Of a stretch of DNA of 64,000 nucleotides, positions 1-64,000 are shown piece after piece. This DNA is from a virus, in IMG/VR virus record IMGVR_UViG_3300045988_173816, positions 32,001 to 96,000 of that record, one strand, 5' to 3'. A program made the position numbers and the translations under genes. The notes beneath the pieces are model-generated. The model did no database searches, was not told the DNA's origin, and was given only the letters and a program-made list of their open reading frames with translations. The first letter of the stretch is position 1, and the number at the start of each line of letters is the position of its first letter.

Positions 1-13
1 TTTTATTCGTAAG

Positions 14-346
14 TTGAGTGTTTCAAACACTTATGTAGACAGAAGACCTAAAGATAAAATAGATGTTTGTAGTATTTTAGTTTACTTTTACACAAATGGT
101 ATTTCTAAGGGTGAGATTTTAGAATTAGGTCAACGTTATGGGTTCACTTTTGAATTAAATCCTTCTTGGTATTCCATAGATGCAATCGATAAAGGATTAT
201 ATTCTTTGAGAAATTTTAAACCTTCACCTTCTATCCCTCATTTATCAAATGATACTTGTTTGTTTTGGGTTCAAGCTTTATTATTGGGGTTGTTTAATTC
301 AAATATACCGGTTAGTGCAGTATTTAAAGAAGGAGTTTGGTATTAA
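14..346 (+). CDS. hypothetical protein (5' end uncertain)
   Basis: 110-codon ORF from TTG 14. The same frame has no stop back to nt 2, so the gene may begin upstream of the window. No motif recognised. Confidence 0.4.
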   Translation: MSVSNTYVDRRPKDKIDVCSILVYFYTNGISKGEILELGQRYGFTFELNPSWYSIDAIDKGLYSLRNFKPSPSIPHLSNDTCLFWVQALLLGLFNSNIPVSAVFKEGVWY

Positions 347-793
347 GTGGTGCCTGTATTTTTTGGAGTAGATGGTGGTGTTTTGACAGGGGTTAGTGCT
401 TGTGCAGAATATGGTTTGTGCGCAGGTTCTGATTTTTATACTGAATATAGAGTTCAAGGTTCTTCAAATTATTTAGCAGAAGGGTCTTATATTCATATTA
501 TTTCTTCATCTAAACCATTTGAAGTTGTGGAGATGGGGGGACAACCGTTAGTTAGCAAATACCAAGCTATAGTGGATGCTTGTTACTTTTATCATGATGA
601 TTCTGCTTTAGCTGAAATTTTTGAAGAACTAGAATATGAGGGTGAACTAGATGTTTGGGTATCTTATGCTAAATCAGTAAATATGGATTCATCTTTATTA
701 CAGTTTATTTTATCTATGTTTACAGACGCTTATAGAGACACTTACGATGGTGGTTTTCCTTTAGTTTTATCTAATCGATCATTGTTTACTTAG
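347..793 (+). CDS. hypothetical protein
   Basis: 148-codon ORF starting at GTG directly after the previous stop. Co-directional. No motif recognised. Confidence 0.5.
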   Translation: MVPVFFGVDGGVLTGVSACAEYGLCAGSDFYTEYRVQGSSNYLAEGSYIHIISSSKPFEVVEMGGQPLVSKYQAIVDACYFYHDDSALAEIFEELEYEGELDVWVSYAKSVNMDSSLLQFILSMFTDAYRDTYDGGFPLVLSNRSLFT

Positions 794-800
794 GTATAAA

Positions 801-832
801 GAGAAACAAGTTTAGAGCTTGTTTTCTTTTTT
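801..832 (+). terminator. rho-independent terminator
   Basis: Stem AAACAAG (804-810) / CTTGTTT (818-824) with a 7-nt loop, followed by a T-run. Confidence 0.6.
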
Positions 833-859
833 GACTTTTTTGTACTTTTGTGCTATAAT
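831..859 (+). promoter_or_regulatory. sigma-A-type promoter with extended -10
   Basis: TTGACT (831-836), 17-bp spacer, TGcTATAAT (TATAAT at 854-859), then AAAAGAAA. Confidence 0.6.
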
Positions 860-893: not shown

Positions 894-1664
894 TTGAGAA
901 CCAAAGAAGAGGTCTTTGAGTTGGTTAAATCACATCTTATTGATTTAGATTCGGTATCAGAAGTCGCCACTCAGCGTAAGTATATTCATGATGAGATTAA
1001 GTCTTATTTAGTTGAGAATTATTTAGGTTTCGCAACAAGTCCTTCGGTCAATATTGAGTTGATGAACGCTTTAGATGAGGTTGGTTGGCTTGACAAAGGT
1101 ACATTTACCTTGGAGGGTAGAGTAGTTGTACCTATTCGCAACGCAGATGGTTCGATTGCTACCTTGGTAGGTTGGCGAAAAGGATTTCCAAAATACTACA
1201 CGATTGCAGATAAGGATTTTTCTAAAGAAAGTCATTGGTTTAATTTAGACAGAGCCTTGGATAAGTCCTTTAATGGAGATAAGCGGTATCGAGGTTCTAT
1301 TGTGGTGGTTGAGGGTATATTTGATGCTCTTCATTTGGATGCTTATGGTGTACCAGCTATTGCGACTGTGGGAGCGGACGTAAATGCTTATAAGGGAGCA
1401 GTTCTTAACTTGTTCGACAAAGTGATTTGTGTCCCGGATAATGATAGAGCAGGGCAGAGAGCTTTACTAGAGAAGAAATGGCAAGTACCGACTAGTGCAA
1501 CTTTCTTATATGTAGAAGAAAAGCGGTATCAATTTGGAGAAGGTCTTTCTTTTCAAGTAAAAGATATTGATAACTTTTTAAGTCTATTCGGTTCTCAAAT
1601 TCATGAGGTTCTAGTGCCTTTGGTGGAGAACAAAGCAGCAGTAGTGGAGAGGTTGAGTTTATGA
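894..1664 (+). CDS. Toprim-domain DNA primase-like protein
   Basis: VVVEGIFDALHL (Toprim Glu) and VICVPDNDRAGQRA (DxD). No N-terminal Zn ribbon seen. TTG start about 10 nt after AAAGGAAAGGAAG. Confidence 0.7.
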   Translation: MRTKEEVFELVKSHLIDLDSVSEVATQRKYIHDEIKSYLVENYLGFATSPSVNIELMNALDEVGWLDKGTFTLEGRVVVPIRNADGSIATLVGWRKGFPKYYTIADKDFSKESHWFNLDRALDKSFNGDKRYRGSIVVVEGIFDALHLDAYGVPAIATVGADVNAYKGAVLNLFDKVICVPDNDRAGQRALLEKKWQVPTSATFLYVEEKRYQFGEGLSFQVKDIDNFLSLFGSQIHEVLVPLVENKAAVVERLSL

Positions 1665-3641: not shown

Positions 3642-3647
3642 ATTTAT

Positions 3648-11251: not shown

Positions 11252-11914
11252 TTGGTTTCAGAAACATTCGCAAATCGTCTTGGTGCAATTAAACAAGATT
11301 ACTCCTTAAAAGAGGATAGACTTAGAAAGCGCCAAGATGATATTGCACAACTAGAAGATTTGCGTACTCTCTATTTGAATAGAGCGAAAGCCTTGCAATA
11401 CGTTGTTATGTTAAGTAATGATGGTACAAAAGGTTTGCGTGACTATATGGAGGGTATCATTAACCGAGCTTTGGCTTTGGTCTTTGGAGAAAATGTCTAT
11501 AAGTTCTCCTTGATTTCTGATTTGAAAGCTCAGAAAGTTCACTTGAACTTATTGGAGTTTAAGAACGGTCAGTGGAACGAACTAGTGATTGGTAAACAAA
11601 CTGGTGATGGTATGGGTCAAATCATTGCCTTTCTGTTCTCTGTAGTATTGACTGAGATTACAAATCACCGTATGTTGTTTGTAGTAGACGAGTTGATGGG
11701 TGGTCTTCACGAAAAGGCAGTAGAATTGGTACAACGTTGTATTGCTGAGTTTGAAGGTCATGGTGGTCAGTTTGCTATGATTGAGTACACCTTTGAGGGC
11801 TTTGGTAAAGAGTTGATGTTGGCTTTCGACAACAAGAAAGAGCGTACTAACATTGTGGATTCGAGAGAATATCCATTGTTACCGGAAGAAAAAGAAAGCA
11901 CAGTTGTTGCTTAG
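11252..11914 (+). CDS. Rad50/SbcC-like ATPase, C-terminal half
   Basis: Short N-terminal coiled coil, then QTGDGMGQIIAFLFSVVL (degenerate signature-motif position) and MLFVVDELMGGL (Walker B/D-loop). Confidence 0.5.
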   Translation: MVSETFANRLGAIKQDYSLKEDRLRKRQDDIAQLEDLRTLYLNRAKALQYVVMLSNDGTKGLRDYMEGIINRALALVFGENVYKFSLISDLKAQKVHLNLLEFKNGQWNELVIGKQTGDGMGQIIAFLFSVVLTEITNHRMLFVVDELMGGLHEKAVELVQRCIAEFEGHGGQFAMIEYTFEGFGKELMLAFDNKKERTNIVDSREYPLLPEEKESTVVA

Positions 11915-11924
11915 TTATTAAAAA

Positions 11925-11958
11925 GAGAGGATCATCTTTAAGAGGTATCCTCTTTTTT
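11925..11958 (+). terminator. rho-independent terminator containing GGTATC
   Basis: Stem AGAGGAT / ATCCTCT followed by TTTTTT. GGTATC (11944-11949) spans the loop and the 3' arm. Confidence 0.6.
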
Positions 11959-12009
11959 CTTGCTTTTTTAATGTGGTTTTGCTAAACTAGACGAATAAAG
12001 AAACGAAAG

Positions 12010-12222
12010 GTGGTTTGCGCTTTGAACTTAACGGAAAATAGACTTTATAAACACAGGCTGGATTCCAACAAAGTTGTTGTAGTTAAAGAAATAAAACAAG
12101 GTCAAGTCACGTTTCTTCACGCACCTCCAATGAATAGTGACATACAGTGGCTTGTACCTCCGAAACGTGACACTTTGTCTTTAAGTGACTTTAAGTCAAT
12201 TTACCAACTTTTTAAGCATTAA
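12010..12222 (+). CDS. hypothetical small protein
   Basis: 70-codon GTG ORF between a terminator and the next promoter-like region. Weak evidence. Confidence 0.35.
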   Translation: MVCALNLTENRLYKHRLDSNKVVVVKEIKQGQVTFLHAPPMNSDIQWLVPPKRDTLSLSDFKSIYQLFKH

Positions 12223-12343
12223 AACACTTGCGGTATCTACCTCTGCCAACCAAATCGAAAATGTAACAGAGTCGTAATAGAACTTACGACTTTTTCTGTT
12301 ATAATAGAGACTATCAATTGAATGAAAAGGATGAAATTCTCGT

Positions 12344-13603
12344 ATGAAAAAGAAAACCGTATCGACATTATTATTAAGTACAGTTCTATTGAGTCAATTT
12401 TTCACAGTAGTTCCATCAGTTCACGCTGGTGTTTTACAATCGGACACTAATTTAGAAAAACAAACTCAAAAAGTGGAACAGTTGACAGATAAACAATTAG
12501 AAGCTACTAAACAGTTAGATGAAGTTCAAGCTAAAGTAATGGTTTTAGAAACTGAGCAGTCTAATTTAGAGAGTGAAAATGAGCATTTAGAGTCGGTGTC
12601 TAAGACTTTGGAGCAAGATATTGATACTTTATCTAAGAATATTGTGTCAAGACAAAGTTCGTTAGAGGAACAAGCTAGAAGTGCTCAAACAAAAGGTACT
12701 GCGCTTGATTATGTGAATGCAGTTATCAATTCTAAATCTATTTCTGATGCTATTTCTAAAGTTTCTGCTATGAGTCAGATTGTAGAAGCTAGTAACAAGA
12801 TGTTAACTGAGCAGAAGAAGGATAAGGAAGCTATTTTAGCGAAGCAAGAAGAAAACAATAACGCTATTAACACAGTTATTGCAAATAAAGAGAAATTACA
12901 AGATGATGCACAGTCTTTAAATGCTCGCAAAGCAGAGTTAGAAGTAGCGAAGTTAAATTTGGAAGTTGAAAAGAATGAAGCAGAAGATAAGAAAGCTGAA
13001 CTATTAGCACAGAAAGAAGAGTTGGAGCGTAAAGCTACACAAGCTTTGGAAGAAGAAAAAGCATATTTAGCTCAAAAAGAGAGTGAAAAAGCAGTAGTTA
13101 CTAACTCTGCCAACACTTCTTTAGAAAAAGAGGTTTCAGCGGTATCAGCACCGTCTGCACCAATTACCTCAGAAGAAGAAGTAACTTCAAGCTCTGAACC
13201 TCAAGAAGAACTTTCAACACCAGCAGTAACTACAACTGTTACTACAACAAGTCATCCTAAGTACAATACAGACGCTTCAAGTTACCCAATGGGAGAGTGT
13301 ACTTGGGGAGCTAAGACATTAGCACCTTGGGCTGGAGACTATTGGGGTAATGGAGCGCAGTGGGCGACAAGTGCTACCGCCGCAGGATTTAGAACAGGTT
13401 CAACTCCACAAGTCGGTGCGATTGCTTGTTGGAACGATGGTGCTTATGGTCACGTGGCAGTTGTAACTGCGGTTGAGTCTAATACTCGTATTCAAGTTTC
13501 TGAGTCTAACGTTGGTGGAAAACGTTACATTGGCAACCACCGTGGCTGGTTTAACCCAACTACAACTTCAGAAGGATTCGTAACTTACATTTATCAAAAC
13601 TAA
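12344..13603 (+). CDS. secreted PcsB-like coiled-coil / CHAP-domain peptidoglycan hydrolase
   Basis: Signal peptide [28 protein letters not shown], a long coiled coil, and a C-terminal CHAP region CTWGAK...[17 protein letters not shown]...SESN (Cys/His catalytic pattern). Confidence 0.85.
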
Positions 13604-13619
13604 GAAAATAGTAAATTTT

Positions 13620-13651
13620 ATCCAGTATGTGAGGGCATGCTGGATTTTTTC
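13620..13651 (+). terminator. rho-independent terminator
   Basis: Stem ATCCAG (13620-13625) / CTGGAT (13640-13645) followed by TTTTTT. Confidence 0.6.
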
Positions 13652-13682
13652 GTGTTCTCGTTTGGATAGTAAGTAGAAAATC

Positions 13683-15941
13683 TTGAAAGTTGAGATAAAA
13701 CAAATGTTTGAACTACTAAAAGGTTCCCAACCTGTTTCAACTCAAAACCAACAAGGTCAAGGAGTTGTACAAGGTAAAGTAACCAATAAATACGTTGAAA
13801 ATTTTGAAAGGCTCTTGTGTGCAGGAGCATATAAACAGTTAAAAGAGAGAAAAGACAAGGGAATTACTGAGGGTATCATTTCCAAGTTCTCGCCTAACAA
13901 TGTGCGTAGAGTTGTTCTTGGGTTAGATGGTATTTACGTTCAGTTTTATGTTTCCCCGGTTAATTTTAAGGCAAAGGAGCAGTTCGTACCAATTACCTTT
14001 ACAGAGCAGTTAGGTACAGAATTATCAGCAGAAAGCAAGTCTACTCCAATTACTAAAGTGTTGAGAGGTGACAGTCGCTCTCTCTTTGGTTCACGTGTCT
14101 TCTCTAGTGTTGAAGAGATTATTATCTTGAGCAGTAGTCCAGAAGTTCAAGGGTATCTTTTAGACAACCACGGTCTCGATTGGTTCTTAGACCCAAGTAG
14201 AAAACAAACTGTGGAGTCTTCCTTTAAGCGATTGAGAGCAGTTGGTTTAGTGGAAGATAGTGTGACTTGTAAAGAGTTTGTCGAAAGTCATAGAGAACAA
14301 ATCAATGATCCGTATGGTTTAATTTTGAGAGACACCGAATTGAACTATGTTGGTGCTTTGTTCAATGATGATTTGTATTATACCCACACGGCTCTTCGTC
14401 CTCAATATTATGAGATGGATGAAGAAGGTGGCGCTCTGTGGAATTATTTCCAAGAGGTTAAGAAAGGTTCTCCAAGTAGAGCAAAGGCTTCAACTACGGA
14501 TAGTAAAGAGATTGGTAAAGGGTTCTTAAAAGAAACCGACTTAACCTTAGTAAACAATTTCTTAGGTTTAGTACATGTGCTAGAGGGGTATCAACAAGAT
14601 ATTTCGGCTGATTTTCCAACTTTAAAGGAGACTTTAGAAGTAGGAGAGCATAATAAAGCTCTAGCAAAAGAGTATGTAAACTCTATGGTTGCTTTTGTAA
14701 AAGAGCATCGAGATATTACTTCTTATCCAACTCCAAAAGTAGCTATTACAACTGATACAACTTATTTAAGAGCAGTTTCTGTCGCTAATTACCTCTTGAA
14801 GAACAAAGACAAGGTGGGGTTAAGTAAAGGTGTGGATTCAGTATTTGTAGGGTATCTCACTGCGCTCACCACTTGCTTGGAGTTGGCTTTAGAACATATC
14901 ACCTTTGACTTTATGAGTTCAGAGTTTGTTTCAAGTTATAAGAGTGGGTTAGAGTTGTATTTTAGCAACTTATCTGATGAAAGAGAAGAAACAGAAGAAC
15001 CTTTGGAAACAGAAGAAGAGGTCTCAGAAGAACCAACCGAAGAAGACAACATTATTGAGAAGTACCAAGGACTTTATGATAAATTAGATAGTTTCGGTTT
15101 TGATTTAGAGGGTGTAGACTTTAAACCTTTAGAGAGAGAAATTACTTTAGAGGGTGTAGATTTCTTACCAGAGAGTGTGTTAGACACAGTAGGAGAAGTT
15201 TCTCCTTTATTTGCAGTAATCAGTTGGTTGTCTATGAACTCGGTTTACTCTTTCGATACATTCTTTAACGAAAAAGATTTCTTCCAACTAGCTTGTTCTT
15301 TAAAAGACCTTGATTTATCAGATGAAGAAGCACTTAAACTAGCAAGTTTCGGTATCTTTGGTTTAGAGTCAGATTCTGTATTTGAGGGTTACAATGATTT
15401 TATTGATAAGAACTCTAAGTTAAAAGAGCAGTTCGGAGAGTTTGATAGTTACTTCGTAAATGAGGGTAAAGGCTCAGAGTTTAAACAAATTAGACCGTCC
15501 TTTAAAGAGTTTGCAGAGCGTTTTGCTAATGAAGTCTCAGTTGAATTACTGACTGCTCCTAACTATTTAGCAGTAGATGTCTTACGTTCTGCTTATGGTT
15601 TCAATGCTTGGGGTGTTCCATTACCTAAAGTTTCTCAACTACCTAAATTGAGTAAACTTCTGACTGATTTGGTAAACACCACACGGGTATCCTATCGTTT
15701 CCGTCGAGATTTTGAGAAGTTTGAAAAAGAGTTTGGAGCTGATGTTATTAGTCGTTTGAGTAGTAAACACTTAACAAAAGAGGGTGATTTCCTAAGTTGT
15801 ACTATTGACCCTAATACTTTTGTGAAGGTAGTAAGTAGCATTTTCAGTTATTATCCGCCTAGCGAAGTAAGAGACATTAGTGGAGTCTTCCAAAAAGCAT
15901 TAGAATTAGTAGAGAAGAAAGAAGGTGATGAGCGTGAGTAA
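13683..15941 (+). CDS. large hypothetical protein (752 aa)
   Basis: Long ORF with an acidic linker EETEEPLETEEEVSEEPTEED. The start is uncertain (TTG 13683 or ATG 13704). Confidence 0.6.
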   Translation: MKVEIKQMFELLKGSQPVSTQNQQGQGVVQGKVTNKYVENFERLLCAGAYKQLKERKDKGITEGIISKFSPNNVRRVVLGLDGIYVQFYVSPVNFKAKEQFVPITFTEQLGTELSAESKSTPITKVLRGDSRSLFGSRVFSSVEEIIILSSSPEVQGYLLDNHGLDWFLDPSRKQTVESSFKRLRAVGLVEDSVTCKEFVESHREQINDPYGLILRDTELNYVGALFNDDLYYTHTALRPQYYEMDEEGGALWNYFQEVKKGSPSRAKASTTDSKEIGKGFLKETDLTLVNNFLGLVHVLEGYQQDISADFPTLKETLEVGEHNKALAKEYVNSMVAFVKEHRDITSYPTPKVAITTDTTYLRAVSVANYLLKNKDKVGLSKGVDSVFVGYLTALTTCLELALEHITFDFMSSEFVSSYKSGLELYFSNLSDEREETEEPLETEEEVSEEPTEEDNIIEKYQGLYDKLDSFGFDLEGVDFKPLEREITLEGVDFLPESVLDTVGEVSPLFAVISWLSMNSVYSFDTFFNEKDFFQLACSLKDLDLSDEEALKLASFGIFGLESDSVFEGYNDFIDKNSKLKEQFGEFDSYFVNEGKGSEFKQIRPSFKEFAERFANEVSVELLTAPNYLAVDVLRSAYGFNAWGVPLPKVSQLPKLSKLLTDLVNTTRVSYRFRRDFEKFEKEFGADVISRLSSKHLTKEGDFLSCTIDPNTFVKVVSSIFSYYPPSEVRDISGVFQKALELVEKKEGDERE

Positions 15942-18900
15942 AGTACAAGATCAGATGGAGAAAATCTCAAATCAGCTTGGGCTTGGTTTGGATAATCAAC
16001 AGATTGTAGATGTAGTTTATAGTTCAGTTGAGGAACTAGTAGAGAATGGACTTGAAGGTTCAGATGAGGTCGTTTATTTCTATGCTACTTGTATGTTAGC
16101 TTGCGCCTTCGGTCAGCTTTCTTTAGATAGAAAAGAGAGTGGCTTTACTTTTGGGTTCAGTGATTTAAAACCAATTTACACTCAATTAGAGTCAGAATTG
16201 GCAGTCCATTCCGTTGAAAACCAACTAAAAAACCAACTAGCGGTATCCGACTTGCGTTCAACTTCTTTGAGAGAATTGAAAGCAGAGCAATTAGAATACT
16301 TCTTAATTGATGATATTGCAACTGTTTCAAAGGCTTTAGATTTAGAGTTTGACCCTACTTCGGTATCTACCGAGGTCAAAGATAGCTTGGTTTCTGTAGA
16401 AGATGAGACCTTTGCACGAAAGATTAAAGCTTTAAAATCTTCAAGTAAATTGAACGCTGATGTTGTGTCTTTAGTTGATTCTTTACTTGATATTTATGAT
16501 TTTGCCTTTGAAGCAGGTTATGAGCTAGATAAATACGAAGGGGTTGTAGTTGGTTTACCAGATTTGCCTATGGTTATTATCCAAGGAGAGCAAGCAGTTC
16601 AACCAAATTATACTGCATCTTATTATGCAGGGGAAGCGATGTTTTCTCCTCTTCGTTCTATTTCTGTAAATACTTCAAGACAAGTGGATTTAAAAGAAAT
16701 TGTAGAGTCAAGCAAACCGATTTATTACCCTTACAAGATGTTAGAGTTTGCATTAAGTCGTAAAGTAACTGTTCAAAAAGATGATTTGAACTTTCCTTCA
16801 GTTCCTATGAAGTGGAAAGGTTCAGACGGTCAACGTGAAGCGATTAAAGATTACTTAACAAAGAGAGCTTGGGAATATTTAGTTTTAGTTTGTGATACTT
16901 ACCAAGATGGGTATTTTTGGTCTGATAAGGTTGCTTATTTTGGGAAAGGCGCAACAAGACCGATTACTCCAACAGATAACCAAGTATTTAAAGAGTATTT
17001 AGCTAAATTTAAAGCGACTTTCTCAACATTTTCTATATTGAAAAACCACGTTGGCATGATGGAAGATGAGAAATGGGCTTCCGCCGAGTGGGTGGTATCA
17101 GCTCCAATTTCTGAACTTCAAAACAGCGAATTTAATCATAGTAGTGCTTTATACACTGATGTATTTGAATATGGTGGTGACTTTGAAGTTCCTTTGGTGA
17201 GAGATTTTAAAGATGTTCGTGTAAGTCACTACACCCACATTGCTAAACCAGAAATTGCCGAGAGCGAACCTTTGTTTGCATATAAGGCTTTAGAGTCCTT
17301 ACAACGTAAAGGTGAGAAACTAACTTATGGCTACCAGTTATTGGGTAAAGGTCTTGATGGTCGTATTCTAACTGCTTCAAACGATATGACTGCAGCAGTA
17401 AATGCTGGAGCTAAGTTAGTTCTCACTTATTGGGCTGGTTCTCGCTCGGGTAAAGGAGTCTCCATTTCAAACGGTCTAGCGGTATCGATTGCGAATGGTC
17501 GTCCAGTGTTTGGTGGTGATGGTAAACCAGACACAATGGTTCCTTACTATATTGCCTTTGGTGGAGCTGATGAAAACGGTATTCCTAAAGGTTATTTCAT
17601 TCAAGCGGGTGTTTTCAATAAATCTGCTATGCCAGTAGTCAATAACATTTCTGAGCAGTTGGATTGGGATAATAACTCTACTATCATGGGTTGGTTCGAT
17701 AAATCTATTCCTAAATGGTTTAGTGGTGTAAGTAGTTCTCAAAAGCGCTACACAGGTGCTTGGGGAGATATGGCTTTCTATCGCCACATGTTGCTTGTTA
17801 TGGGTATTGTTTCACTTCGTGCTACGGTTAAAGCTAGTGACGTTGCTCTTTACGAAAAACTTGGAGGTGATGAAGGTATCCTCGGAATTTTTGATGAGGT
17901 AACAAACTGGTCGAATTTGTTTGGGTCTAAGGCTCTCAGCTCGAATGGTGGTTGGTTCCAAAGCATCATGTCTGACCCAGAACTTGAAGAATTTGTGGAT
18001 TTAGGTCAAAATTACTTAGGTGGTTTACTGAAAGAACAAGCAACTCGCAAATTTGAACGTACTTTAGATGATAAAGCAGGTGAGCTGAGAAACAGAGCAT
18101 ACTTACGAGATTTGTACGATAAGCTTGATGAAAGCATGCAACTGTTGAACAAGCTGAAAAAAGCAGGTTTCCAAAACGAGGAGAGCTTGCGCTCAAGTAT
18201 TTACTTAGTAGGTCAAAGTTTCAACATGGGTGGTTTTGATAAACTTCCTAGAAACAAAGGGAATGATGCATCCTCATTTAAAGCAGCTTGTGATTATAAG
18301 AACGGTGTAGTAGATCCTTGGTTGTATACTCTTTTAAATTTGGACACTGGGTTTATGGTTGGGTACAAAGGTACTGAAAAATCTCAGTATTGGTCTAGCC
18401 AAAACGGGTCAGATTCCAAGCGGTATCTCACTTCAAGTTCTCGAAGGTTTGCTTATTTTGGTAGTGTGGATTTCCCAACCATTCGAGATGAAAACCCTCA
18501 AAATAAAGGGTTGGCTCGCTCTGTAAATTCTCAAATGGAAGGTGGAGCAGTCTACTTTAAACCTTATTTGATTTTAGGTGACTCCCAAGGTTCCTGTGTC
18601 ACTCAGTTGGAGAAGAACTTAGGAAGTAAAGCTGAGTCTATCAAGTCTCGTAATTCAAACCCTAACAATCCTAATGAGTGGGATGAAAGAATTGGTGTTC
18701 TAGGGTATCTGAAGGCTCTCGGTTCTAGTGATATTAGTAAGTCTTTTGTCCGAGCTAGAGAGATTGCTGATTTGGTTGTAGCTCAAATGGGTTATGAGGG
18801 TTCTTACTTGGAGTTTCTTTTAGACCTAAGACCTGAGTGGAATTTCTCTTGTGAAGATGTCGTTATGGCTTTCACAAACCAAGACGCTTATTTAGCTAAG

Positions 18901-46730: not shown

Positions 46731-46785
46731 GTTTTCTTAGGAAGTTTATAGAGAAAGTTGTTTTAAAAGGATTTGGCAAGTTAAT

Positions 46786-47705: not shown

Positions 47706-49922
47706 TTGGTAAAAATGTATCAATCAGCACTCGACAACCTCAGTAACGACAAGGGTTTTGCTAGTGTAAAACCTAGTGCAAATTCAAAGCAACAACCTAC
47801 TGAGGAACAAATTTACGAAGAAAATATGAAGAAGTATTTGGACTTGGTTGCTTCTAAAGGTTATAATTTAGAAGAACTAGAACCAATTATTCGCTCTGAG
47901 GGTCGCACAGAGTTGTTTGCGACTGCGGGTTCAGGTAAGTCCACTTCGATTTCTTTGATTTTAGCAAAGGATAAAACCATTGGTCGCTTGTCTCCAGCTA
48001 ACCGAGGTAAGAAAGTTGCTTGGGTGACTACCTTCTTAAGTAAAGGCGCAGAAGAGATTAAACAGAACGTAGAGCGCACTTTCGCTAAACTAGGTCTTAC
48101 TGGAGTATCCACTTCCGATATTACATTCAGCACATTACAATCAGAGTTCTTTGAGCTTTTACGACTTCGTGGGTTTAACCTCACAGATAAGTCAAAGTCA
48201 GACTATGTTCAAATGTTAGACGCAGGTGGTGGTGATACTGAGGGTTCTCGTAATTTCAATGCTATTATGGGTAGACTTTTCCGTAAACATGACTTAGGTG
48301 ATGAAGGTAGTAACTATGTTTCTCTTCAAGATAAAAGAGATTTGGCTGCTATTATTTCAAACTACCGTAACTGTTCTATTTCTGAGTACCAATTTGGAGA
48401 AGCAGCAGACACGGCTAAACGCTTGAATCTCCCAAGAAACTTACTTCCAGTTGTAGTTGAAGATTACCAAGCACTCAAAGAGTCCTTGAACGTTATTGAC
48501 TTTGATGATTTGATGACTTACGTTTACGATTATATGGTCGTAGAAAAGGAAGATGATCCAGTTCAGATGGCTTGGGTCAACTTCTACAAAAACCGTTACG
48601 AATACTTCATGTTGGACGAAGCTCAAGATATGTCTGAGTTGCAGTACCAAGTATTGAAACCAATTTTTGAGAACTGTCCGCGTGTTGTTATTGTAGGGGA
48701 CCCAGACCAGTCGATTTATGGTTTCCGTGGTTCAAACCCAGAAGTCATGGAGTGGTTCGACAAGGAGTATAAGCCTACTAAATACCCACTCTCGGTATCT
48801 TACCGTTGCCCGTCAAATATTTTGAAGCCAATTACCAAATCAATTGAGAAGAACTCAAATCGTTATGAACATTCTCTTCGCTCATTTAAAGAAGGTGGAG
48901 TCCTTGAAGCTTACCATTTCGACTCTGTAAAAGATATGGCTGAAGCTTCTTTGCAATTGATTGATAAATATTTAGCTGAAGGAAAAACCATTGCAGTTCA
49001 ATCTCGAGTAAATTTCACTTATTCTCCAGCTTCTATTCTTTACGCAGTGAAGCGCCAAGGTGACTTCAACTTACTAGGAGACGTAAGGGATTTTAGAACC
49101 ACTCGTTATAAAAAGGTTTGGAATCTTATTGAAATGGTGCGTGGTCGAGGTTTGGTGGATATTAAGAATAACTTAAAAGTTTTAGCTCCAGAGTTGAAAC
49201 CTTGGGACGCTAAAAACCTCGCAGAGCGCCTAATGAATGCTATTCCAGAAAATAAAAATGTGTTGTTCTCCGATAACTACGCTTATTTGGACTTCATTGC
49301 GCAAGAATATGGTCTCAAGTCTATGGCTACTTTGGTAGACAAGTTACGAAAGACTTATGGTCAAGAATTTCCCGGAGAAATGGTTCTATTTAAAGAGCTT
49401 TTGGCTCATGTCCTTTATTGGGGGGAGCCCGCTAATGCAGAGGTAGTCGGCACTATTTCAACATTGGCAGAGGAAAGTGAAACTGTTACAGACTTCTTTA
49501 GCAACATGGACTTTATCAATAACAAAATTGGTGAAGCTAAGAGGGGTGGGACTTCACTCTTAACTTTTGCTACTCCATTTAGCTTTAAAGGACGTGAAGC
49601 CAATGTCAACATTATTTTTGATGCTTCTGACGGTGTCTTCCCTTACACATTAAGTGGTGAGTTGAGTTATGAAGAAGAGCGTCGAGTTCACTTTGTAGCA
49701 GGAACACGTGGTGATGAGGTCACTATTTACCTTACTCGCAGAGGAAAGGCTTCACCATTCTTGAAAGAGATGGGTATCCCTATAAAAGCGTGGACTCCAC
49801 TTGACGGAGTGGTACTAAATGGTGTAAAATTAAAGGAGGAGTTGAGATTGAAAGAACGCATGCAAAAAGCCAAGGTCGAAGAACAACTTGGCGCGTTCAC
49901 AGACTTCGATTTTAAACTTTAA
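47706..49922 (+). CDS. UvrD/Rep/PcrA-family superfamily-1 DNA helicase
   Basis: Motifs ATAGSGKST (I), TTFLSKGA (Ia), MLDEAQDMS (II), VIVGDPDQSIYGFRGS (III), SYRCPSNI (IV), TPFSFKGREANVNIIF (V), VHFVAGTRGDE (VI). The start may be ATG 47715. Confidence 0.85.
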   Translation: MVKMYQSALDNLSNDKGFASVKPSANSKQQPTEEQIYEENMKKYLDLVASKGYNLEELEPIIRSEGRTELFATAGSGKSTSISLILAKDKTIGRLSPANRGKKVAWVTTFLSKGAEEIKQNVERTFAKLGLTGVSTSDITFSTLQSEFFELLRLRGFNLTDKSKSDYVQMLDAGGGDTEGSRNFNAIMGRLFRKHDLGDEGSNYVSLQDKRDLAAIISNYRNCSISEYQFGEAADTAKRLNLPRNLLPVVVEDYQALKESLNVIDFDDLMTYVYDYMVVEKEDDPVQMAWVNFYKNRYEYFMLDEAQDMSELQYQVLKPIFENCPRVVIVGDPDQSIYGFRGSNPEVMEWFDKEYKPTKYPLSVSYRCPSNILKPITKSIEKNSNRYEHSLRSFKEGGVLEAYHFDSVKDMAEASLQLIDKYLAEGKTIAVQSRVNFTYSPASILYAVKRQGDFNLLGDVRDFRTTRYKKVWNLIEMVRGRGLVDIKNNLKVLAPELKPWDAKNLAERLMNAIPENKNVLFSDNYAYLDFIAQEYGLKSMATLVDKLRKTYGQEFPGEMVLFKELLAHVLYWGEPANAEVVGTISTLAEESETVTDFFSNMDFINNKIGEAKRGGTSLLTFATPFSFKGREANVNIIFDASDGVFPYTLSGELSYEEERRVHFVAGTRGDEVTIYLTRRGKASPFLKEMGIPIKAWTPLDGVVLNGVKLKEELRLKERMQKAKVEEQLGAFTDFDFKL

Positions 49923-60922: not shown

Positions 60923-60931
60923 GGTGGATAG

Positions 60932-62245
60932 ATGGCTGATTTCGAGTATTTGTACTACGAATTAAGTAGGTCAATCATAGCAGATGTGGAGTCTGTTCTC
61001 TTAAAAGCTAGGAGAACGGATATTCGCTTGGTACAAGGTGGATCGAAGTTTCAACCTTTGTCTGTAAAAAGTCATGCTAGAAAGCCTAGTACAGCAGGGT
61101 TCTTACTAACAGTAGACGAAAAAGCTAAGTTAGATAAGAACAGTAAGCTTAAAGAAGCAGTAGGTGAAGATAGAGCACATATTATTACAACTTCTGATGA
61201 GTTAATTGACTTGTTAGAAAAAGAACTTGGTTCTTCTTTACGTTCTACTTCTAAACTTACTGAGGAAGTGGTTTCAGTTGAACCTTCGGTATCCTCTTTC
61301 GTTAGCCCTTCTCCTATGGTTGAGGGAGTTGAGCCTTCAGTAGTTGAGCCTAAAGAAGAGGTAAAGGTGGAAGATTCTTTACCAGCGGAACAAGATGTTG
61401 TTTTACCAGTTGATGATGGCTTTGGTTTAACGATTGAAGAGGAAGTTCAAGTTTTAAGAGCTGAGAATAACTCTTTAAAACGAGATTTAAAACAGGCACA
61501 ACAAAACTCAGCAGGGGTATCCACAGAAGAGGTCGATTCTCTAAAGAAAGACTTAGAAACTAAAACTTTTGATTTAAACGCTGAGAGAGAAGCACATAGT
61601 AATACTAAAGACACTTTAACATTGGTAGAGCAAGATTTTGAGAAGAAGAAATTTGAATACGCTAAGTTAGAAGTTGAATTAGATGAGGTAAAGGCTAAGT
61701 TGAAAGAAGGTGCAACTGTACCAGTAACTCCTCTAAGTGTTCCAAAAAATGTTGAAATTTATGTAACTGCTTCAAGCTTAGATTTGGTTCAGTCGTATCA
61801 TTATTTGCTCTTGAACATGAAAAATACTTTAGTAATTGATTTATCCCCAGAAAGTGTGATGGACACGCTCGTTCGATTAACGAAGCGTAACAGAGTAGGG
61901 AAGTGGTTGTTAGGAGAGCAAAATATTAGAGCTTTGTACTCTCCTTATGATGAGATTAAAACGAAGGTTGCTGATGGTTTAGAGTTGTTGACTTCACCTA
62001 ATGCTTTGCTTCCAGTAAACTTTTTATCAGAAGTAGAATGGGAACGAAAATTGGAAGACTTATCTCGCTTGAATTGTAAAGTAGTTTTGTACTTAGGTTT
62101 AGAAACAAACCGAGGTGTTTTTGAGTTTCTAAGTCGATTAGATAAACAAGCAAAAGTCTTGCGTTCAAGTAGTCCATTGAGTGAACGTGCTTGGAAGCGC
62201 GTAGTTCGTCAATATGAAGGTTCAGTAGAAGAGGTGGCGATTTGA
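60932..62245 (+). CDS. coiled-coil protein
   Basis: 437-codon ORF. The central region LRAENNSLKRDLKQAQQ...KLEVELDEVKAKLKE is heptad-rich. Confidence 0.55.
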   Translation: MADFEYLYYELSRSIIADVESVLLKARRTDIRLVQGGSKFQPLSVKSHARKPSTAGFLLTVDEKAKLDKNSKLKEAVGEDRAHIITTSDELIDLLEKELGSSLRSTSKLTEEVVSVEPSVSSFVSPSPMVEGVEPSVVEPKEEVKVEDSLPAEQDVVLPVDDGFGLTIEEEVQVLRAENNSLKRDLKQAQQNSAGVSTEEVDSLKKDLETKTFDLNAEREAHSNTKDTLTLVEQDFEKKKFEYAKLEVELDEVKAKLKEGATVPVTPLSVPKNVEIYVTASSLDLVQSYHYLLLNMKNTLVIDLSPESVMDTLVRLTKRNRVGKWLLGEQNIRALYSPYDEIKTKVADGLELLTSPNALLPVNFLSEVEWERKLEDLSRLNCKVVLYLGLETNRGVFEFLSRLDKQAKVLRSSSPLSERAWKRVVRQYEGSVEEVAI

Positions 62246-63072
62246 GTTTGAGAAAAACATTATCTGTACGTTTAACAGAGGAGCAGTCAAACTTGATTGA
62301 AGTCCTTCGTACAGAGAAGAAATTAAGTAGTTATATTTCCTTGTTGCTAGGTGCTTTACTTCAAGATAGGGTGTCGACTACTCAGTTCTTGCTTGGTTTG
62401 TCTGATCAGTCAGTAGCTTATAATGACTTACAAAAGTCTACTATTCAAGCGAACTTGTATGAGAAGTGGTTGTCTTTGAAAATTGAAGAACCTTTTGCAG
62501 ATTGGGTAGCAACTTTACGAAGTGCTGAGATTAAGCATTTTGGTGGACTTGACATGCCTTTGGTTGATGTGAAATCTACGTTATTGGATTTGTTAGATGA
62601 TTTAGGTTTGGAGTTGGTAGAAAAAGGTTCTACAACTTTAGATGAGGTGGAGAAAAGCTCACAAGGGGTATCTTCTACGGAGCAAAGTTCTTTAGTAGTT
62701 GGTTCAACTGAAGTAAATTCGCTTGAATTAAAAGATTTAGTAGCAAGTATGGTTCAAGAAATTCTCTCTACTAAGTCTACAGAGATAGGTGTCGCACAAC
62801 TCCTCCCAGAAGCCCCCACAGAGCCACTGAACCCGTCAGAAGACGATGAGGGTGTAATTGTACCTAAAGAAGTAGAAACTGTATCAGAGAGCGCGACAGA
62901 GCCTCAAAATGAAGTTAAAGAGTCTGTGGTAGATGTAAGTGCAGACCAAGAAAACAATTCTTCTGCTGAGAGTCAACACGAAGTATCTTCTTCACAAGAG
63001 CAACCTACCTCATCTTCTAAGACAGACCCTCTTGTAGATACAACTGCTCTTATGAGTGCCTTTAATTTTTAG
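62242..63072 (+). CDS. ribbon-helix-helix-like DNA-binding protein with acidic tail (ParR/AlpR-type adaptor candidate)
   Basis: The N-terminus LSVRLTEEQSNLIEVLRTEKKLSSYISLLLGALL fits the RHH beta-alpha-alpha pattern. 4-nt overlap with the upstream gene. Last gene of the ParM-like operon. Confidence 0.5.
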   Translation: MSLRKTLSVRLTEEQSNLIEVLRTEKKLSSYISLLLGALLQDRVSTTQFLLGLSDQSVAYNDLQKSTIQANLYEKWLSLKIEEPFADWVATLRSAEIKHFGGLDMPLVDVKSTLLDLLDDLGLELVEKGSTTLDEVEKSSQGVSSTEQSSLVVGSTEVNSLELKDLVASMVQEILSTKSTEIGVAQLLPEAPTEPLNPSEDDEGVIVPKEVETVSESATEPQNEVKESVVDVSADQENNSSAESQHEVSSSQEQPTSSSKTDPLVDTTALMSAFNF

Positions 63073-63090
63073 AAAGTGAGGTAATGAGTC

Positions 63091-64000
63091 GTGGATAAAC
63101 AACCAGATTTATTTGGACAAAGTTCAAGTGGTTCTTTTGGTAATAAACCAAGACCAAACAACAGTTTTGGAAATAGTGCTAACTCGCAAGGTGGTTTTCA
63201 AGGTGGGGGTTTCAACTCTAACTTTAATCCCGGAGGTGGAGTTCCTTTCAAAAGTCCACAACAAGAGCCACCTAAAAGGTCGTATAAAAAGTTGTGGATA
63301 ACTTTAGGTGTATTAGCAAGTCTCGGTATCGTTGGTGCAGGTTCAACTTTGGTGTATAAGCACAATCAAAAAGTTGCGATTGAAAAGAAAGCGAAAGAAG
63401 ATGCTTTGAAAGAGTTGCAAGAGAAGATTTCAAGTGGTGTGTCACAGTTTTCACTAGCTGAGATTTCAGATACTTCTGAAACTAACGGTATTTCCTTGTG
63501 GGATTTGAACCTTACTTATGTTAGTACCAACACTTCAAGAACTGATTTTGTAGGTGCAGTCTCAAAAGCAGTAACAGTTGAATTAAATGGTTCTGACGCT
63601 ACGATTAAGTCTCCTAACTGGGACTACATTGGTTGGGTTATAAAACATGTAGACCATGATAAAATCAAGGCTTTAACCAAAGATTTGAATAAGGATTCTT
63701 ATACTTATAAGGATGATTTAGTAGACGCTTACGCTAAGTACATTGCACAGAACTTAGCTGATATGTTAGAGTACAAAAACTCTTACGTGGCTTCTTATAT
63801 GCAAGGTTCTGATATTCCAAAACCTTACATTACTACTGAGATTTCAAATGCGGTATCCTCAGATAACAAACTAACTTATGAGTTTAATGAAACTTTGGAT
63901 AAGGTTGTGTTTAGTTCAGATAAACTTCATACATCAGAAGACTTTTTTGTAGGTGTTGTAGAAGATAGTTTTGGTGAGAAGAGTGAGAGTCAGGTTCACA
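63091..64000 (+). CDS. membrane-anchored protein, 3'-truncated by window end
   Basis: Absent from the ORF track because no stop is reached. GTG 63091 lies 8 nt after GTGAGGT. My manual translation gives 303 codons without a stop: a G/N/F-rich N-terminus, TM segment LWITLGVLASLGIVGAGSTLVY, then an extracytoplasmic domain. Confidence 0.6.
   Translation, partial: MDKQPDLFGQSSSGSFGNKPRPNNSFGNSANSQGGFQGGGFNSNFNPGGGVPFKSPQQEPPKRSYKKLWITLGVLASLGIVGAGSTLVYKHNQKVAIEKKAKEDALKELQEKISSGVSQFSLAEISDTSETNGISLWDLNLTYVSTNTSRTDFVGAVSKAVTVELNGSDATIKSPNWDYIGWVIKHVDHDKIKALTKDLNKDSYTYKDDLVDAYAKYIAQNLADMLEYKNSYVASYMQGSDIPKPYITTEISNAVSSDNKLTYEFNETLDKVVFSSDKLHTSEDFFVGVVEDSFGEKSESQVH

Follow-up and report, generated by a model that had tools for sequence, protein, structure and literature searches.

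What could read a hexamer that recurs along one strand of a DNA element and is almost missing from the other? The question is raised by GGTATC in the 64,000-nt stretch of DNA analyzed here (hereafter, the window), for which the original prediction reported about 110 copies on the + strand against three on the − strand. The full count gave 116 and 3. The latter appear as GATACC on the + strand at exactly the three predicted positions (31963, 54615, and 59030), and all eight GGTATC examples given (1285, 1525, 5105, 16242, 26595, 32044, 47077, and 47459) are among the sites found.

Enrichment and placement of GGTATC

The Markov, codon-shuffle, and hexamer-ranking checks suggested with the original prediction all set GGTATC apart. 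The expected number of copies was 14.2 at order 0 and 7.2, 12.3, and 18.1 at Markov orders 1–3, corresponding to an enrichment of about 6–16-fold. Ranking the hexamers by the difference between + and − strand counts, GGTATC was first (113), followed by AGATTT (78); by abundance, it tied for second in this window with 36% GC. Synonymous-codon shuffling returned 50.1 ± 3.5 copies (z = 19) and codon-order shuffling 46 ± 3, both values being inflated because non-coding copies were held fixed and codon usage already carries GGTATC. The GC skew ranges from +0.07 to +0.24 throughout the window, and the GGTATC-bearing strand is the G-rich one.

1..64000, + strand: GGTATC array, 116 copies, consensus D-S-GGTATC-Y, on the sense, G-rich strand
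11926..11960, + strand: terminator-like hairpin AGAGGAT-loop-(GGT)ATCCTCT followed by a T run, with GGTATC at the loop/3′-arm junction (from sequence context)
about 32026-32060, 35656-35690, and 36146-36180 (approximate coordinates): further hairpins of the same design

The spacing between copies averages 550 bp, close to the 0.6 kb previously estimated, with a coefficient of variation of 0.60 vs 0.985 under random placement; none of 5,000 simulated placements was as regular. Only 15 gaps are shorter than 250 bp (about 42 expected), and the longest is 2,085 bp (20570 to 22655). Coding copies fall in all three reading frames (28/29/36) and are uniformly distributed along genes, with no bunching in 5′ leaders, while density is higher in intergenic than in coding DNA (2.95 vs 1.65 per kb). 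In the flanks, for which the original prediction gave mostly SGGTATCY, S is at −1 in 99/116 copies (85%) and Y at +1 in 81/116. The CTAG(N)GGTATC context, described as frequent, was overstated: it surrounds 9/116 copies, and the looser CY(N)AG(N) 17/116. The copies placed in terminator hairpins (11944, 32044, 35673, and 36162) do lie, in their sequence contexts, at the loop/3′-arm junction.

At 83% DNA identity, 29/39 sites are retained, against a background hexamer identity of 0.40; at 75% identity, 14/25 are retained (background 0.26). Being conserved at about twice the background rate, individual sites are under purifying selection, with turnover. The use of all frames, the non-coding enrichment, the excess over the synonymous shuffle, and the site conservation together argue for selection on the nucleic acid and not on the protein, as had been proposed. 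No description of the word was found in the literature searched, in agreement with the original prediction; the GGTATC-type word is thus a conserved, apparently undescribed directional signal.

The element carrying the word

The window is colinear with kb 162–246 of pXO16, a 350-kb conjugative plasmid of Bacillus thuringiensis, and its close relatives are contigs of about 230–280 kb filed as viral in IMG/VR. The replicon is a pXO16-like giant conjugative-plasmid-type element and not a T5-type phage.

11252..20181, + strand: counterpart of the pXO16 transfer (tip) locus, by tblastn to pXO16
11252-11914, + strand: small ATPase homologue, tip locus
12344-13603, + strand: CHAP/PcsB cell-wall hydrolase, tip locus
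13683-15941, + strand: 752-aa protein, tip locus
15925-20181, + strand: 1418-aa ATPase, tip locus, with Walker A (AGSRSGKGV) and a downstream DRKPD motif
42651..42894, no strand assigned: iteron-like 21/42/84-bp repeats within a ~1.5-kb non-coding stretch (42.1-43.7 kb)
46750..47480, + strand: six degenerate non-coding units of about 127-150 bp, directly upstream of the helicase gene
47706..49922, + strand: UvrD/PcrA-type helicase (Pfam UvrD-helicase, E 2e-31), with orthologues in L006, L007, and pXO16
57945-59612, + strand: DHH (RecJ-like) phosphoesterase, colinear with pXO16
59648-60922, + strand: actin-like ParM partition protein, colinear with pXO16

The motifs of the 1418-aa ATPase are, we presume, VirD4/TraG-like, and by this resemblance the protein is a putative coupling protein; a profile search of the PDB with it returned no matches. 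The iteron-like region is a candidate origin. Similar stretches without genes precede the corresponding genes in L006, L007, and pXO16 (219.7–221.4 kb in the latter). The orientation of genes and word is unchanged across it. In the six-unit array, the sole fully conserved block is (G)AGGGTATC, present in 5/6 units and replaced by AAGGTATC in the remaining one; a TTGGTAC block precedes it by about 35 nt.

The tip locus of pXO16 has been described as its transfer locus; the plasmid has no known relaxase or oriT, and it also moves word-free plasmids and chromosomal DNA (PMC9673590). The DNA is transferred single-stranded, and plasmids mobilised by pXO16 require a single-strand origin that is intact and in the correct orientation (PMC6199540).

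A drifting one-strand word across the family

Among the relatives examined, nearly all have a one-strand word of their own with GGTA at its core, at one copy per 0.35–0.58 kb. In pXO16 (349.6 kb), the word is GGGGTA (657:5; extended form WGGGGTAK), uniform around the whole circle; the orientation check suggested earlier thus found a single polarity. As in the window, spacing is under-dispersed and the largest gap is about 2.1 kb. GGGGTA is also the word of elements from Lachnospiraceae and Clostridia genome bins (54:0 and 66:3), intermediate clades use AGGGTA, GGGTAT, GGGTATC, and GGTATCGC, and the pooled window clade carries GGTATC at 439:14 in 242 kb. Density is kept despite the different words and a GC content of 33–46%, and the drift of the word parallels that of a conserved giant P-loop ATPase, the family marker. 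The inverted word is not under-represented in the window (3 observed vs 6–9 predicted from composition), nor is it below expectation in pXO16 (5 vs 5–12). Thus, the asymmetry reflects enrichment on one strand and not avoidance on the other.

The host-side control for the word was one co-resident B. thuringiensis plasmid (50 kb), where GGGGTA shows no enrichment (6:7). Since the word tracks the element and is absent from the co-resident plasmid, its reader should be either element-encoded or universal, which argues against a host Chi. From these sequence comparisons, the one-strand word is a slowly drifting, family-wide trait. This aspect was missed by the original prediction, which offered a list of candidate roles and not a choice among them; the list did include priming sites, the role that we rank first.

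Primase and replication genes

894..1664, + strand: DnaG-type primase RNA-polymerase (Toprim) domain, 256 aa, without a zinc-binding or helicase-binding domain

The Toprim primase that had been predicted turned out to be a genuine DnaG-type core. The product matches Pfam Toprim_2 (E 1.6e-7) and, by phmmer, the E. coli and Aquifex DnaG cores (E 2e-4). The best 37 PDB fold matches of its AlphaFold model (pLDDT 91.5) are all DnaG, T7 gp4, T4 gp61, or Twinkle primase domains, with TMq of 0.60–0.65 for DnaG. The EGxxD, DxD, and KY motifs are invariant, and identity with the pXO16 Toprim protein is 37%. This primase is the candidate enzyme using GGTATC.

All clades encode a DnaG-type catalytic domain without zinc finger. 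Further pXO16 products are a stand-alone Zn_ribbon_DnaG protein, a DnaB-like helicase, and a family A polymerase that includes a proofreading exonuclease; the set amounts to a T7-like replisome split into parts. Besides pXO16, one intermediate relative has a separate primase zinc finger; in the L042/L143 contig it stands alone, 78 kb from the ATPase gene, with the same strand and word polarity. Neither the window nor, using exact peptide patterns, the window-clade contigs yielded a zinc-finger reader.

Primase start sites as the preferred reading

We tentatively favor, well short of confidence, a reading in which the words are primase start sites, placed at even intervals on the strand left single-stranded by replication or transfer. 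The word-bearing strand would be the lagging-strand template in unidirectional replication, and probably also the strand displaced and transferred in conjugation. The element's own split primase, made up of the DnaG-type catalytic domain (894-1664) and a zinc-finger reader with a gene of its own, would read the template core 5′-GG(G)TA-3′ and start opposite the T, giving a primer beginning with pppACC, so that the complementary strand would be made in pieces of about 0.5–2 kb. Because the recognition word is long (6–8 informative positions), chance sites would be too few; selection would then write it every 0.35–0.58 kb where coding permits, with non-coding DNA preferred.

In Bacillota, the leading strand has an excess of G and genes are co-oriented with replication. 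The word strand is G-rich and sense, so it should be the leading-strand sequence and hence the lagging-strand template, in line with the original expectation of a lagging-strand template or displaced strand. We infer which way replication runs, which strand is transferred and which becomes single-stranded, the reading of the word by the primase, and the start of priming there. That the word belongs to the whole family and follows the element rather than its host counts for priming. So do the purifying selection on individual sites, the encoded primase and T7-like replication proteins, the conserved density, and the even spacing with its largest gap of about 2.1 kb, which is on the scale of Okazaki fragments. 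The S at −1 fits a pairing-strength degeneracy, matching a need for primer–template stability. For the T7 primase, GGGTC, TGGTC, and GTGTC are the strong sites; the family core GGGTA thus differs from the first of these at the silent 3′ base. The template trinucleotide is determined by the zinc finger of a primase, which can act in trans on another catalytic domain, and the T7 site d(GTC) is replaced by d(GTA) and d(GTG) in the His33Ala mutant (PMC2978363). Moreover, the single-stranded transfer of pXO16 and its single-strand origin requirement indicate that complementary-strand priming is limiting in this transfer system.

Some observations stand against priming. We know of no DnaG-type primase that requires 6–8 bases. 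The T7 genome shows no strand enrichment of its own sites (GGGTC 39:55, TGGTC 79:62, GTGTC 43:42), leaving the priming reading without genomic precedent. In the window clade, information runs 3′ of the supposedly silent base (TC of GGTATC, GC of GGTATCGC), which the T7 model does not predict, and the zinc-finger search described above gave no reader there. Because all genes run in the direction of the word, orientation does not separate priming from a role in transcription or RNA. Finally, the six-unit non-coding array and the terminator-loop copies could instead reflect a different type of binding protein.

Alternative readings

Among the alternatives, we consider it unlikely that the word is a guide or loading signal keeping a conjugative DNA pump one-way. 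The candidate pumps are the 15925-20181 ATPase and the FtsK_SpoIIIE-domain protein of pXO16, and the word could be a distributed substitute for the oriT never found in that plasmid, which likewise has no known relaxase. The single polarity around the pXO16 circle and the drift of the word in step with the giant P-loop ATPase agree with such a guide, as does the fact that KOPS and SRS are also G-rich leading-strand words (PMC3384302). On the other hand, the KOPS-reading gamma domain is undetectable in the pXO16 FtsK-like protein, a wrong-way guide should be harmful and yet the inverted word is not avoided, and pXO16 mobilises DNA devoid of the word. KOPS and SRS occur about once per 4–13 kb, roughly ten times less densely. 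To our knowledge, no coupling protein reads sequence along the transferred strand. Taken as canonical KOPS, the polar guide listed in the original prediction fails on the gamma domain, the density, and the missing polarity flip.

Equally low is the probability of a Chi-like self-marker that switches a helicase-nuclease from degradation to repair. The reader could be the host AddAB/RexAB or the element's UvrD-like helicase with its SbcCD-like and RecJ-like proteins, and the role would be to protect broken or rolling-circle forms of the element.

6348-7928, + strand: SbcC-like gene, with a weak RecF/SMC-type N-terminus, AAA_23 on orthologues, and tblastn match to pXO16
8041-9078, + strand: SbcD/Mre11-like metallophosphoesterase (Pfam Metallophos; tblastn match to pXO16), paired with the SbcC-like gene

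The helicase, this pair, and the DHH phosphoesterase are family core genes, and a short, G-rich word over-represented on the leading-strand sequence, with no avoidance of its inverse, resembles Chi; the 5-mer Chi of Bacillus subtilis has a similar density. Nevertheless, Bacillota Chi words differ between genera, whereas GGGGTA is shared by elements from B. thuringiensis and from one Lachnospiraceae and one Clostridia bin, and the co-resident plasmid lacks it. The word matches none of the Bacillota Chi words AGCGG, GCGCGTG, and GAAGCGG, and the pXO16 annotation includes no AddB/RecC-type reader. Strongly regular spacing is not known for Chi. The host Chi originally proposed is therefore disfavored.

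A signal read in transcription or as RNA (GGUAUC) is rather improbable. In one version, it would be a non-template-strand element reloading an anti-termination factor, as ops does for RfaH, on long co-oriented gene arrays; in another, an RNA processing or RNA-binding site. All genes being sense, each transcript contains the word, as does the non-template strand of each transcription bubble; elements of 240–350 kb with one transcription direction may require processivity factors, and several copies sit within terminator hairpins. GCGGTATC and AGGGGTAG share GGTA with the E. coli ops, GGCGGTAGCGTG. Conversely, the word is uniform along genes and not in 5′ leaders, and the ops 8-mer itself counts 0:1 in the window (4:1 in pXO16). 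A scan of about 45 ORFs of the window and the annotation of pXO16 gave no NusG/KOW protein; a weak NusG match of a 458-aa ORF (E 0.14) was gone in a profile search. We know of no RNA signal occurring every 550 nt in all frames.

54063-55301: C5 cytosine methylase encoded in the window

Lastly, T5-type strand-specific nicking or base modification by an element enzyme is very unlikely: the word is confined to one strand, and the methylase above and the DNA ligase, HNH nuclease, and GIY-YIG nuclease of pXO16 would suit it, but over 400 nicks along a single strand would break up the transferred strand, the Toprim fold is that of a primase and not a nuclease, the nick sites known from phages are sparse and show no enrichment, and modification targets have no cause for enrichment or even spacing. 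Overall, the earlier interpretation is supported in part: it stands for nucleic-acid selection and the primase, whereas a T5-type replicon, host Chi, and canonical KOPS are not supported.

Comparison with known systems

Sog of ColIb-P9 and TraC of RP4 are plasmid primases acting on the transferred strand. As there, a primase is encoded beside transfer genes, and incoming single-stranded DNA needs complementary-strand priming; those primases belong to other sequence families, and we know of no genome-wide enriched recognition word for ColIb-P9 or RP4.

The DUS/USS uptake words of Neisseria and Haemophilus, self-marks for DNA entering the cell, are similar in occurring about once per kb, in all frames, and often in terminator hairpins. 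Uptake sequences are found in either orientation, frequently as inverted pairs, and their role lies in the natural transformation of chromosomes, whereas the word described here has a single orientation on a conjugative-type element.

Chi (RecBCD/AddAB) is likewise over-represented on the leading-strand sequence without avoidance of the inverse. Unlike Chi, which belongs to the host, the word follows the element across bacterial classes, is missing from the co-resident plasmid, and is dissimilar to the Bacillota Chi words given above.

With KOPS/SRS, the polar guides of FtsK and SpoIIIE, and with other architecture-imparting sequences, it shares shortness, G-richness, and an extreme polarity relative to replication; words of this type co-evolve with their reader (PMC3384302). 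KOPS and SRS, however, are chromosomal and flip at origin and terminus, while this word is plasmid-borne, of one polarity, about ten times denser, and lacks a detectable gamma-domain reader in the pXO16 FtsK-like protein.

Compared with the T7 gp4 sites (5′-GTC-3′ core), which are 5-mers frequent by chance and without strand bias, the word has 6–8 informative positions, is enriched 5–16-fold and evenly spaced, and its primase is split over separate genes. The two are alike in density (strong T7 sites about one per 250 bp vs 350–580 bp here) and in the T7-like replication protein set that the family encodes. In T7, and in the reading proposed here, a G-rich template word ending in G-T-N lies on a lagging-strand template read by a DnaG-type catalytic domain with a zinc finger able to act in trans, and the GTA of the family core is a trinucleotide that T7 His33Ala reads (PMC2978363).

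The word GGTATC in the window

The original prediction held that GGTATC is strongly enriched and almost confined to one strand. Indeed, a scripted count gave 116 copies on the + strand and three of the reverse complement GATACC, exactly the three that had been located by hand, and all eight GGTATC examples quoted at that time were among the hits. The expected number was 14 from base composition and 7–18 from Markov models of orders 1–3. When all hexamers of the window (36% GC) were ranked, GGTATC was the most strand-skewed by a wide margin and tied for second place in abundance. Shuffling synonymous codons among genes gave 50 ± 3.5 copies (z = 19), and this null is a generous one, because it leaves the non-coding copies unmoved and the codon usage already carries the word.

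As had been proposed, the word occurs in all reading frames (28, 29, and 36 copies in frames 0, 1, and 2) and outside genes, where it is denser than in coding sequence (2.95/kb vs 1.65/kb); along genes the copies are distributed uniformly. The flanks follow the pattern D-S-GGTATC-Y (85% of the copies have S at −1 and 70% have Y at +1), while the CTAG(N) prefix, which had been described as frequent, is real but minor (9/116). The spacing is far more even than expected by chance (CV 0.60 vs 0.985, with 0 of 5,000 simulations as low): gaps shorter than 250 bp are 15 against 42 expected, and the largest is 2,085 bp.

The inverse word is not below its composition expectation, either in the window (3 vs 6–9) or in pXO16, the 350-kb conjugative plasmid of B. 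thuringiensis (5 vs 5–12), and avoidance of the inverse word is absent from both. The asymmetry is purely an enrichment on one strand. The Markov and shuffle nulls rule out a codon or composition artefact, as do the spread over frames and the strong polarity kept at three loci of relatives where GC skew is only 0.06–0.09 (L007, L041, and L047). A promoter reading was also rejected, because the copies are uniform within genes and their distance to strong sigma-70-like promoters is not fixed.

Identity of the replicon

No nucleotide match to the window was found in phage and plasmid collections. Its proteins are plasmid-like and pXO16-like, thus phage identity and the T5-type frame were dropped. 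The domains found include a CHAP/PcsB wall hydrolase, an LPXTG adhesin with MucBP and SSSPR-51, a UvrD helicase, a C5 methylase, a DHH phosphoesterase, an actin-like partition protein, and the Toprim protein; this content suggests a host among the Lactobacillales.

The link to pXO16 was first seen through a weak protein match to 350-kb B. thuringiensis israelensis plasmids. Between kb 162 and 246, pXO16 has ORFs that match fourteen of the window, in unchanged order and at 21–37% identity, with the Toprim primase, an SbcCD-like pair, a small ATPase, the wall hydrolase, the giant ATPase, the UvrD helicase, DHH, and ParM as colinear markers. The colinear region takes in the counterpart of the pXO16 “tip” transfer locus (PMC9673590). 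The window and pXO16 (all CDS viewed) have a one-strand gene layout and a uniform positive GC skew, and in relatives this layout extends 10 kb past each window end. Judged by gene content and order, the window replicon is a member of the pXO16-like giant conjugative elements, among which conjugative transfer has been experimentally shown for pXO16 alone (PMC9673590). That plasmid has all its CDS on one strand, transfers single-stranded DNA very fast through cell aggregation, and mobilises almost any DNA, while its relaxase and oriT have not been identified (PMC6199540, PMC9673590).

Homologues of the giant ATPase lie on metagenome contigs of 220–300 kb and on many IMG/VR “viral” contigs. On two of these, 3300007654_000008 (244,669 bp) and 7000000147_000028 (234,131 bp), the positions of the primase gene and of the 276-aa gene at 62242–63072 of the window show a gene order that continues across the contig ends, so that both may be complete circular genomes of about 234–245 kb. 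These plasmid-like elements are catalogued in IMG/VR as viral genomes. Some family members come from metagenome samples whose identifiers resemble those of the Human Microbiome Project. A profile search of genome contigs with the marker alignment returned two genome bins; a single-protein query returned none.

Inocles are giant elements of oral Streptococcus with the marker InoC (about 454 aa, PF13814) and with ORF orientation switching at origin and terminus (PMC12340149). PF13814 did not match the 458-aa window ORF even at E 10, and no such switch occurred in the 84 kb read of a roughly 240-kb element.

Features of the window (coordinates, strand where assigned, description)
894–1664 (+): Toprim protein, candidate primase
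2110–2499: stand-alone ATP-cone protein near the primase gene (E 2e-21)
3976–4122 (+): IS605-orfB-II RNA (Rfam; 146 bits vs gathering score 88)
15925–20181 (+): giant ATPase, 1418 aa, marker protein of the family
42651–42894: iteron-like 21/42/84-bp repeats within some 1.5 kb of non-coding DNA
43275–43330: AGCAGAA ×8, in the same non-coding stretch
46116–46730: ORF with tandem 12/24-nt repeats (46202–46321), Gly/His/Ser-rich SHGG-type low-complexity protein
46750–47480: six degenerate units of about 127–150 bp, non-coding, upstream of the UvrD-type helicase
54063–55301: C5 cytosine DNA methylase (E 2e-62)

The iteron-like stretch is a candidate origin. An equivalent gene-free gap lies upstream of the same genes in two relatives (L006 and L007) and in pXO16 (219.7–221.4 kb), and gene orientation, GC skew, and word polarity are unchanged across it. 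In the six-unit array, the best-kept block is GAGGGTATC, and a block TTGGTAC lies about 35 nt upstream of it. A known RNA family or a tRNA array was rejected here (no Rfam family at gathering score and no tRNA at 46.75–47.5 kb), and the array could be a cluster of strand-initiation signals. The IS605-type RNA, inside a stretch without any ORF of at least 80 aa (3616–4912), looks like a remnant or a stand-alone copy of the RNA found 3′ of IS605 orfB/TnpB genes. The corresponding region of pXO16 (162.9–167.3 kb; 5200–9636 of the stretch L001) is 4.4 kb without annotated CDS, between the primase gene and the transfer locus.

The word across the family

Then, we ranked strand-skewed words in each relative. 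In nearly every one, the top-ranked word has a GGTA core and always lies on the gene strand; the distant relatives L044, L049, and L058 showed no obvious one-strand word.

Strand-polar words in the family (relatives; word; copies as +:−)
Window clade (66–98% marker identity); SGGTATC; 35–50 : 0–3 per 24 kb, 439:14 pooled
L004, L005, L041 (32–38% marker identity); GGGTATC(T); GGTATC 55:0 and 47:1, GGGTATC 36:0
L042/L143 (loci of a single contig, 78 kb from each other and on the same strand); GGGTAT; 38:0 and 36:1
L006, L045; AGGGTA(T); 61:1, 56:1
L007, L047; GGGTAT and GGGGTA; 63:2, 53:1
L043, L046, L048; GGGGTA(T); 43–59 : 0–1
L050; GGTATCGC; GGTATCG 34:0
Lachnospiraceae bin, Clostridia bin; GGGGTA; 54:0, 66:3

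On the whole pXO16 sequence, put together from nine stretches, WGGGGTAK counts 657:5, with 12–27 copies per 10-kb bin, a mean spacing of 531 bp, and a largest gap of 2,071 bp. No polarity flip occurs on the entire 349.6-kb circle, nor, in the window clade, within 10 kb beyond either window end. A scan of this clade for the terminator module gave only the same conserved site. Over the family, there is one copy per 0.35–0.58 kb across 33–46% GC. Word sites are retained in 29/39 cases at 83% DNA identity (background 0.40) and in 14/25 at 75% (background 0.26), which is about double the conservation of other hexamers, yet the sites do turn over. The word is a family trait with slow drift, and the number and the spacing of its sites are both under selection. 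On pAM65-52-1-360K, a B. thuringiensis plasmid co-resident with pXO16, GGGGTA counts 6:7 in 50 kb, a plasmid rather than a chromosomal control. As the word tracks the element family and is not enriched on the co-resident plasmid, its reader travels with the element or is universal.

A more distant group of IMG/VR contigs of 214–295 kb (L051–L057), whose similarity to the family is limited to the P-loop region of the giant ATPase, carries a different polar word at similar density, GTTTAT(C) or AGTTTA (GTTTAT about 50–58 : 4–8, GGTTTA 30:0, AGTTTA 48:5; GC skew 0.33–0.34). This hints that many giant elements may have polar words of their own. GAAGAAG, the KOPS word of Lactococcus (PMC3384302), shows a skew as well (27:4 in the window, 282:18 in pXO16). 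Purine-rich codons may account for part of it; it could also mean that host-type segregation words coexist with the private one.

Candidate readers

The Toprim protein, which the original prediction had called a primase, proved to contain a complete DnaG-type RNA-polymerase domain. Indeed, phmmer matched it to the DnaG cores of E. coli and Aquifex, 14 homologues share its catalytic motifs without change, and the best 37 PDB matches of its AlphaFold model (pLDDT 91.5) were all primase domains of DnaG, T7 gp4, T4 gp61, or Twinkle. Neither a zinc finger nor a helicase-binding domain was detected in the protein, and no primase zinc finger was found elsewhere in the window. The Toprim protein of pXO16 is WP_000389279.1. 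Apart from it, this plasmid has genes for a CHC2 primase zinc finger that stands alone (WP_000365721.1, 190 aa), a DnaB-like helicase (WP_001162832.1), a ligase, a gyrase, and a family A polymerase that includes a proofreading exonuclease. A stand-alone CHC2 zinc finger also occurs on the L042/L143 contig, the only one found by two IMG/VR scans with exact peptide patterns, which returned none in the window clade.

Among possible DNA pumps, the FtsK/SpoIIIE-domain protein of pXO16 has a Pfam match to the motor domain only, with no gamma winged-helix domain detectable by Pfam. The giant ATPase carries the Walker A motif AGSRSGKGV and a downstream DRKPD, which we take to be VirD4/TraG-like motifs, and we infer the same label for the protein. 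PDB profile searches with this protein and the 458-aa ORF gave nothing usable, and single-sequence searches with these two and the 752-aa window protein gave nothing.

A possible role in priming

The best explanation, which we put forward tentatively, is that the word marks primase start sites on the strand that becomes single-stranded in replication or transfer. In both the window and pXO16, the G-rich sense strand is the one that bears the word. In Bacillota, the G-rich sense strand generally has the leading-strand sequence, thus, by this rule rather than by a mapped origin or direction, it would be the lagging-strand template. If replication and transfer were unidirectional or of rolling-circle type, as the flip-free pXO16 circle and the conserved UvrD/PcrA-type helicase beside conserved non-coding repeats suggest, the word strand would also be the displaced one, a very long single strand that would need priming many times. 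The family core 5′-GGGTA-3′ would template a primer beginning pppACC(C), and for a primase requiring 6–8 bases the word would have to be written in, as is observed, at a resulting density similar to that of T7.

It is the zinc finger of a primase that specifies the template trinucleotide, whose 3′ base is silent, and it can do so in trans for a catalytic domain that is separate from it; the trinucleotide is d(GTC) for T7 primase and d(GTA) for the His33Ala mutant of this enzyme (PMC2978363). The invariant core GGTA contains 5′-GTA-3′, with a central pyrimidine, so the primer would start with a purine; this amounts to compatibility with the trinucleotide rule only. GGGTC is a strong T7 primase site, and the family GGGTA is the same site with the silent base changed. 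The S degeneracy at −1 in the window is of the kind expected of a pairing-strength requirement. T7 is ruled out as a precedent for strand-enriched primase sites: in its genome (L019) the 5-mer sites occur by chance, about one per 250 bp, with no strand bias. As a separate observation, the T7 sense strand carries GCTGGTG (21:0), GCTGGT (44:2), and TGGTGG (37:1), up to seven of the eight E. coli Chi bases.

Several points count against priming. We know of no precedent for a primase word this long, the window clade carries information 3′ of the supposed silent base, and the zinc finger is so far missing from that clade in the exact-peptide search. Furthermore, because the word is co-oriented with every gene, roles at the level of transcription keep their place.

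A fuller version of the priming explanation, which is somewhat doubtful, is that this family of Bacillota giant elements, to which pXO16 and abundant metagenomic elements of 230–280 kb belong, has a private “priming code”, a word of 6–8 bases every ~0.5 kb read only by its own split primase. The code would sit on the strand entering the new cell or displaced at the fork, and word and reader would co-evolve from GGGGTA through GGGTAT and GGTATC to GGTATCGC. If true, a single strand of 240–350 kb could quickly become duplex in any host with the element's machinery alone. No earlier case would then exist of primase start sites selected as an array over a whole genome, or of a replicon-architecture word belonging to a plasmid and not to a host chromosome.

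Alternative explanations

A guide for the conjugative DNA pump would fit the single polarity and the missing oriT, but it has no reader domain and the inverse word is not avoided; we consider it unlikely. It is likewise improbable that the word is a Chi-like mark of self, for which an element-encoded helicase-nuclease could be the reader. The form originally proposed, an attenuator of the host AddAB/RexAB, is disfavoured, as the same word GGGGTA is found in elements of Bacilli and Clostridia and is unskewed on the co-resident plasmid.

A transcription or RNA signal would agree with the co-orientation of word and genes, but the copies show no leader bias and are uniform along genes, which makes it quite improbable. 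For a signal of the ops/RfaH type, in which ops is a 12-nt word in the 5′ leaders of long operons, GGCGGTAG counts 0:1 in the window, and no NusG/KOW paralogue was found among about 45 of the 77 window ORFs scanned. Nick or modification sites are very unlikely, and the remaining probability lies with something that we have not thought of.

Significance and comparison with known polar words

Full-text literature searches with GGTATC, GGGGTA, AGGGGTA, GGGTATC, and AGGGGTAG returned nothing relevant, within a scope that did not include the primary pXO16 sequence papers (PubMed 25770691, 29488309), and those on polar words nothing relevant to plasmids. The pXO16 reviews mention the common gene orientation and not a repeated word (PMC6199540, PMC9673590).

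The family described here owns a polar word, spans at least two bacterial classes, and its word changes with the element and not with the host. More than 90% of pXO16 genes have no assigned function. The word is a direct experimental handle on this plasmid, whose transfer is fast and near-universal and whose oriT and relaxase are not known. Should the word prove to be a primase code, the conversion of a very long single strand to duplex within minutes would be accounted for, and biotechnology would gain a sequence-specific priming system. Whatever its function, the word with its polarity is a simple computational marker to find, orient, and bin such elements in metagenomes.

Strand-polar words, Chi and KOPS among them, have a central part in the replication, repair, and segregation of chromosomes, and to our knowledge they have until now been seen as belonging to the host, to its chromosomes and its enzymes. 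The word belongs with Chi and KOPS/SRS to the class of strand-polar “architecture” words, but it fails the defining tests of each. A translocase guide of the canonical KOPS/SRS type, a form of one of the roles first proposed, is contradicted by the lack of a detectable gamma domain and by the circle of pXO16: the polarity of KOPS/SRS converges on the terminus and flips there and at the origin, whereas pXO16 shows no flip. KOPS are also about ten times less dense. DNA uptake sequences occur in both orientations, commonly as inverted pairs, whereas the window word counts 116:3. Unlike Chi, KOPS, and SRS, the word is owned by a mobile element family, evenly spaced, and of a single polarity around the circle.
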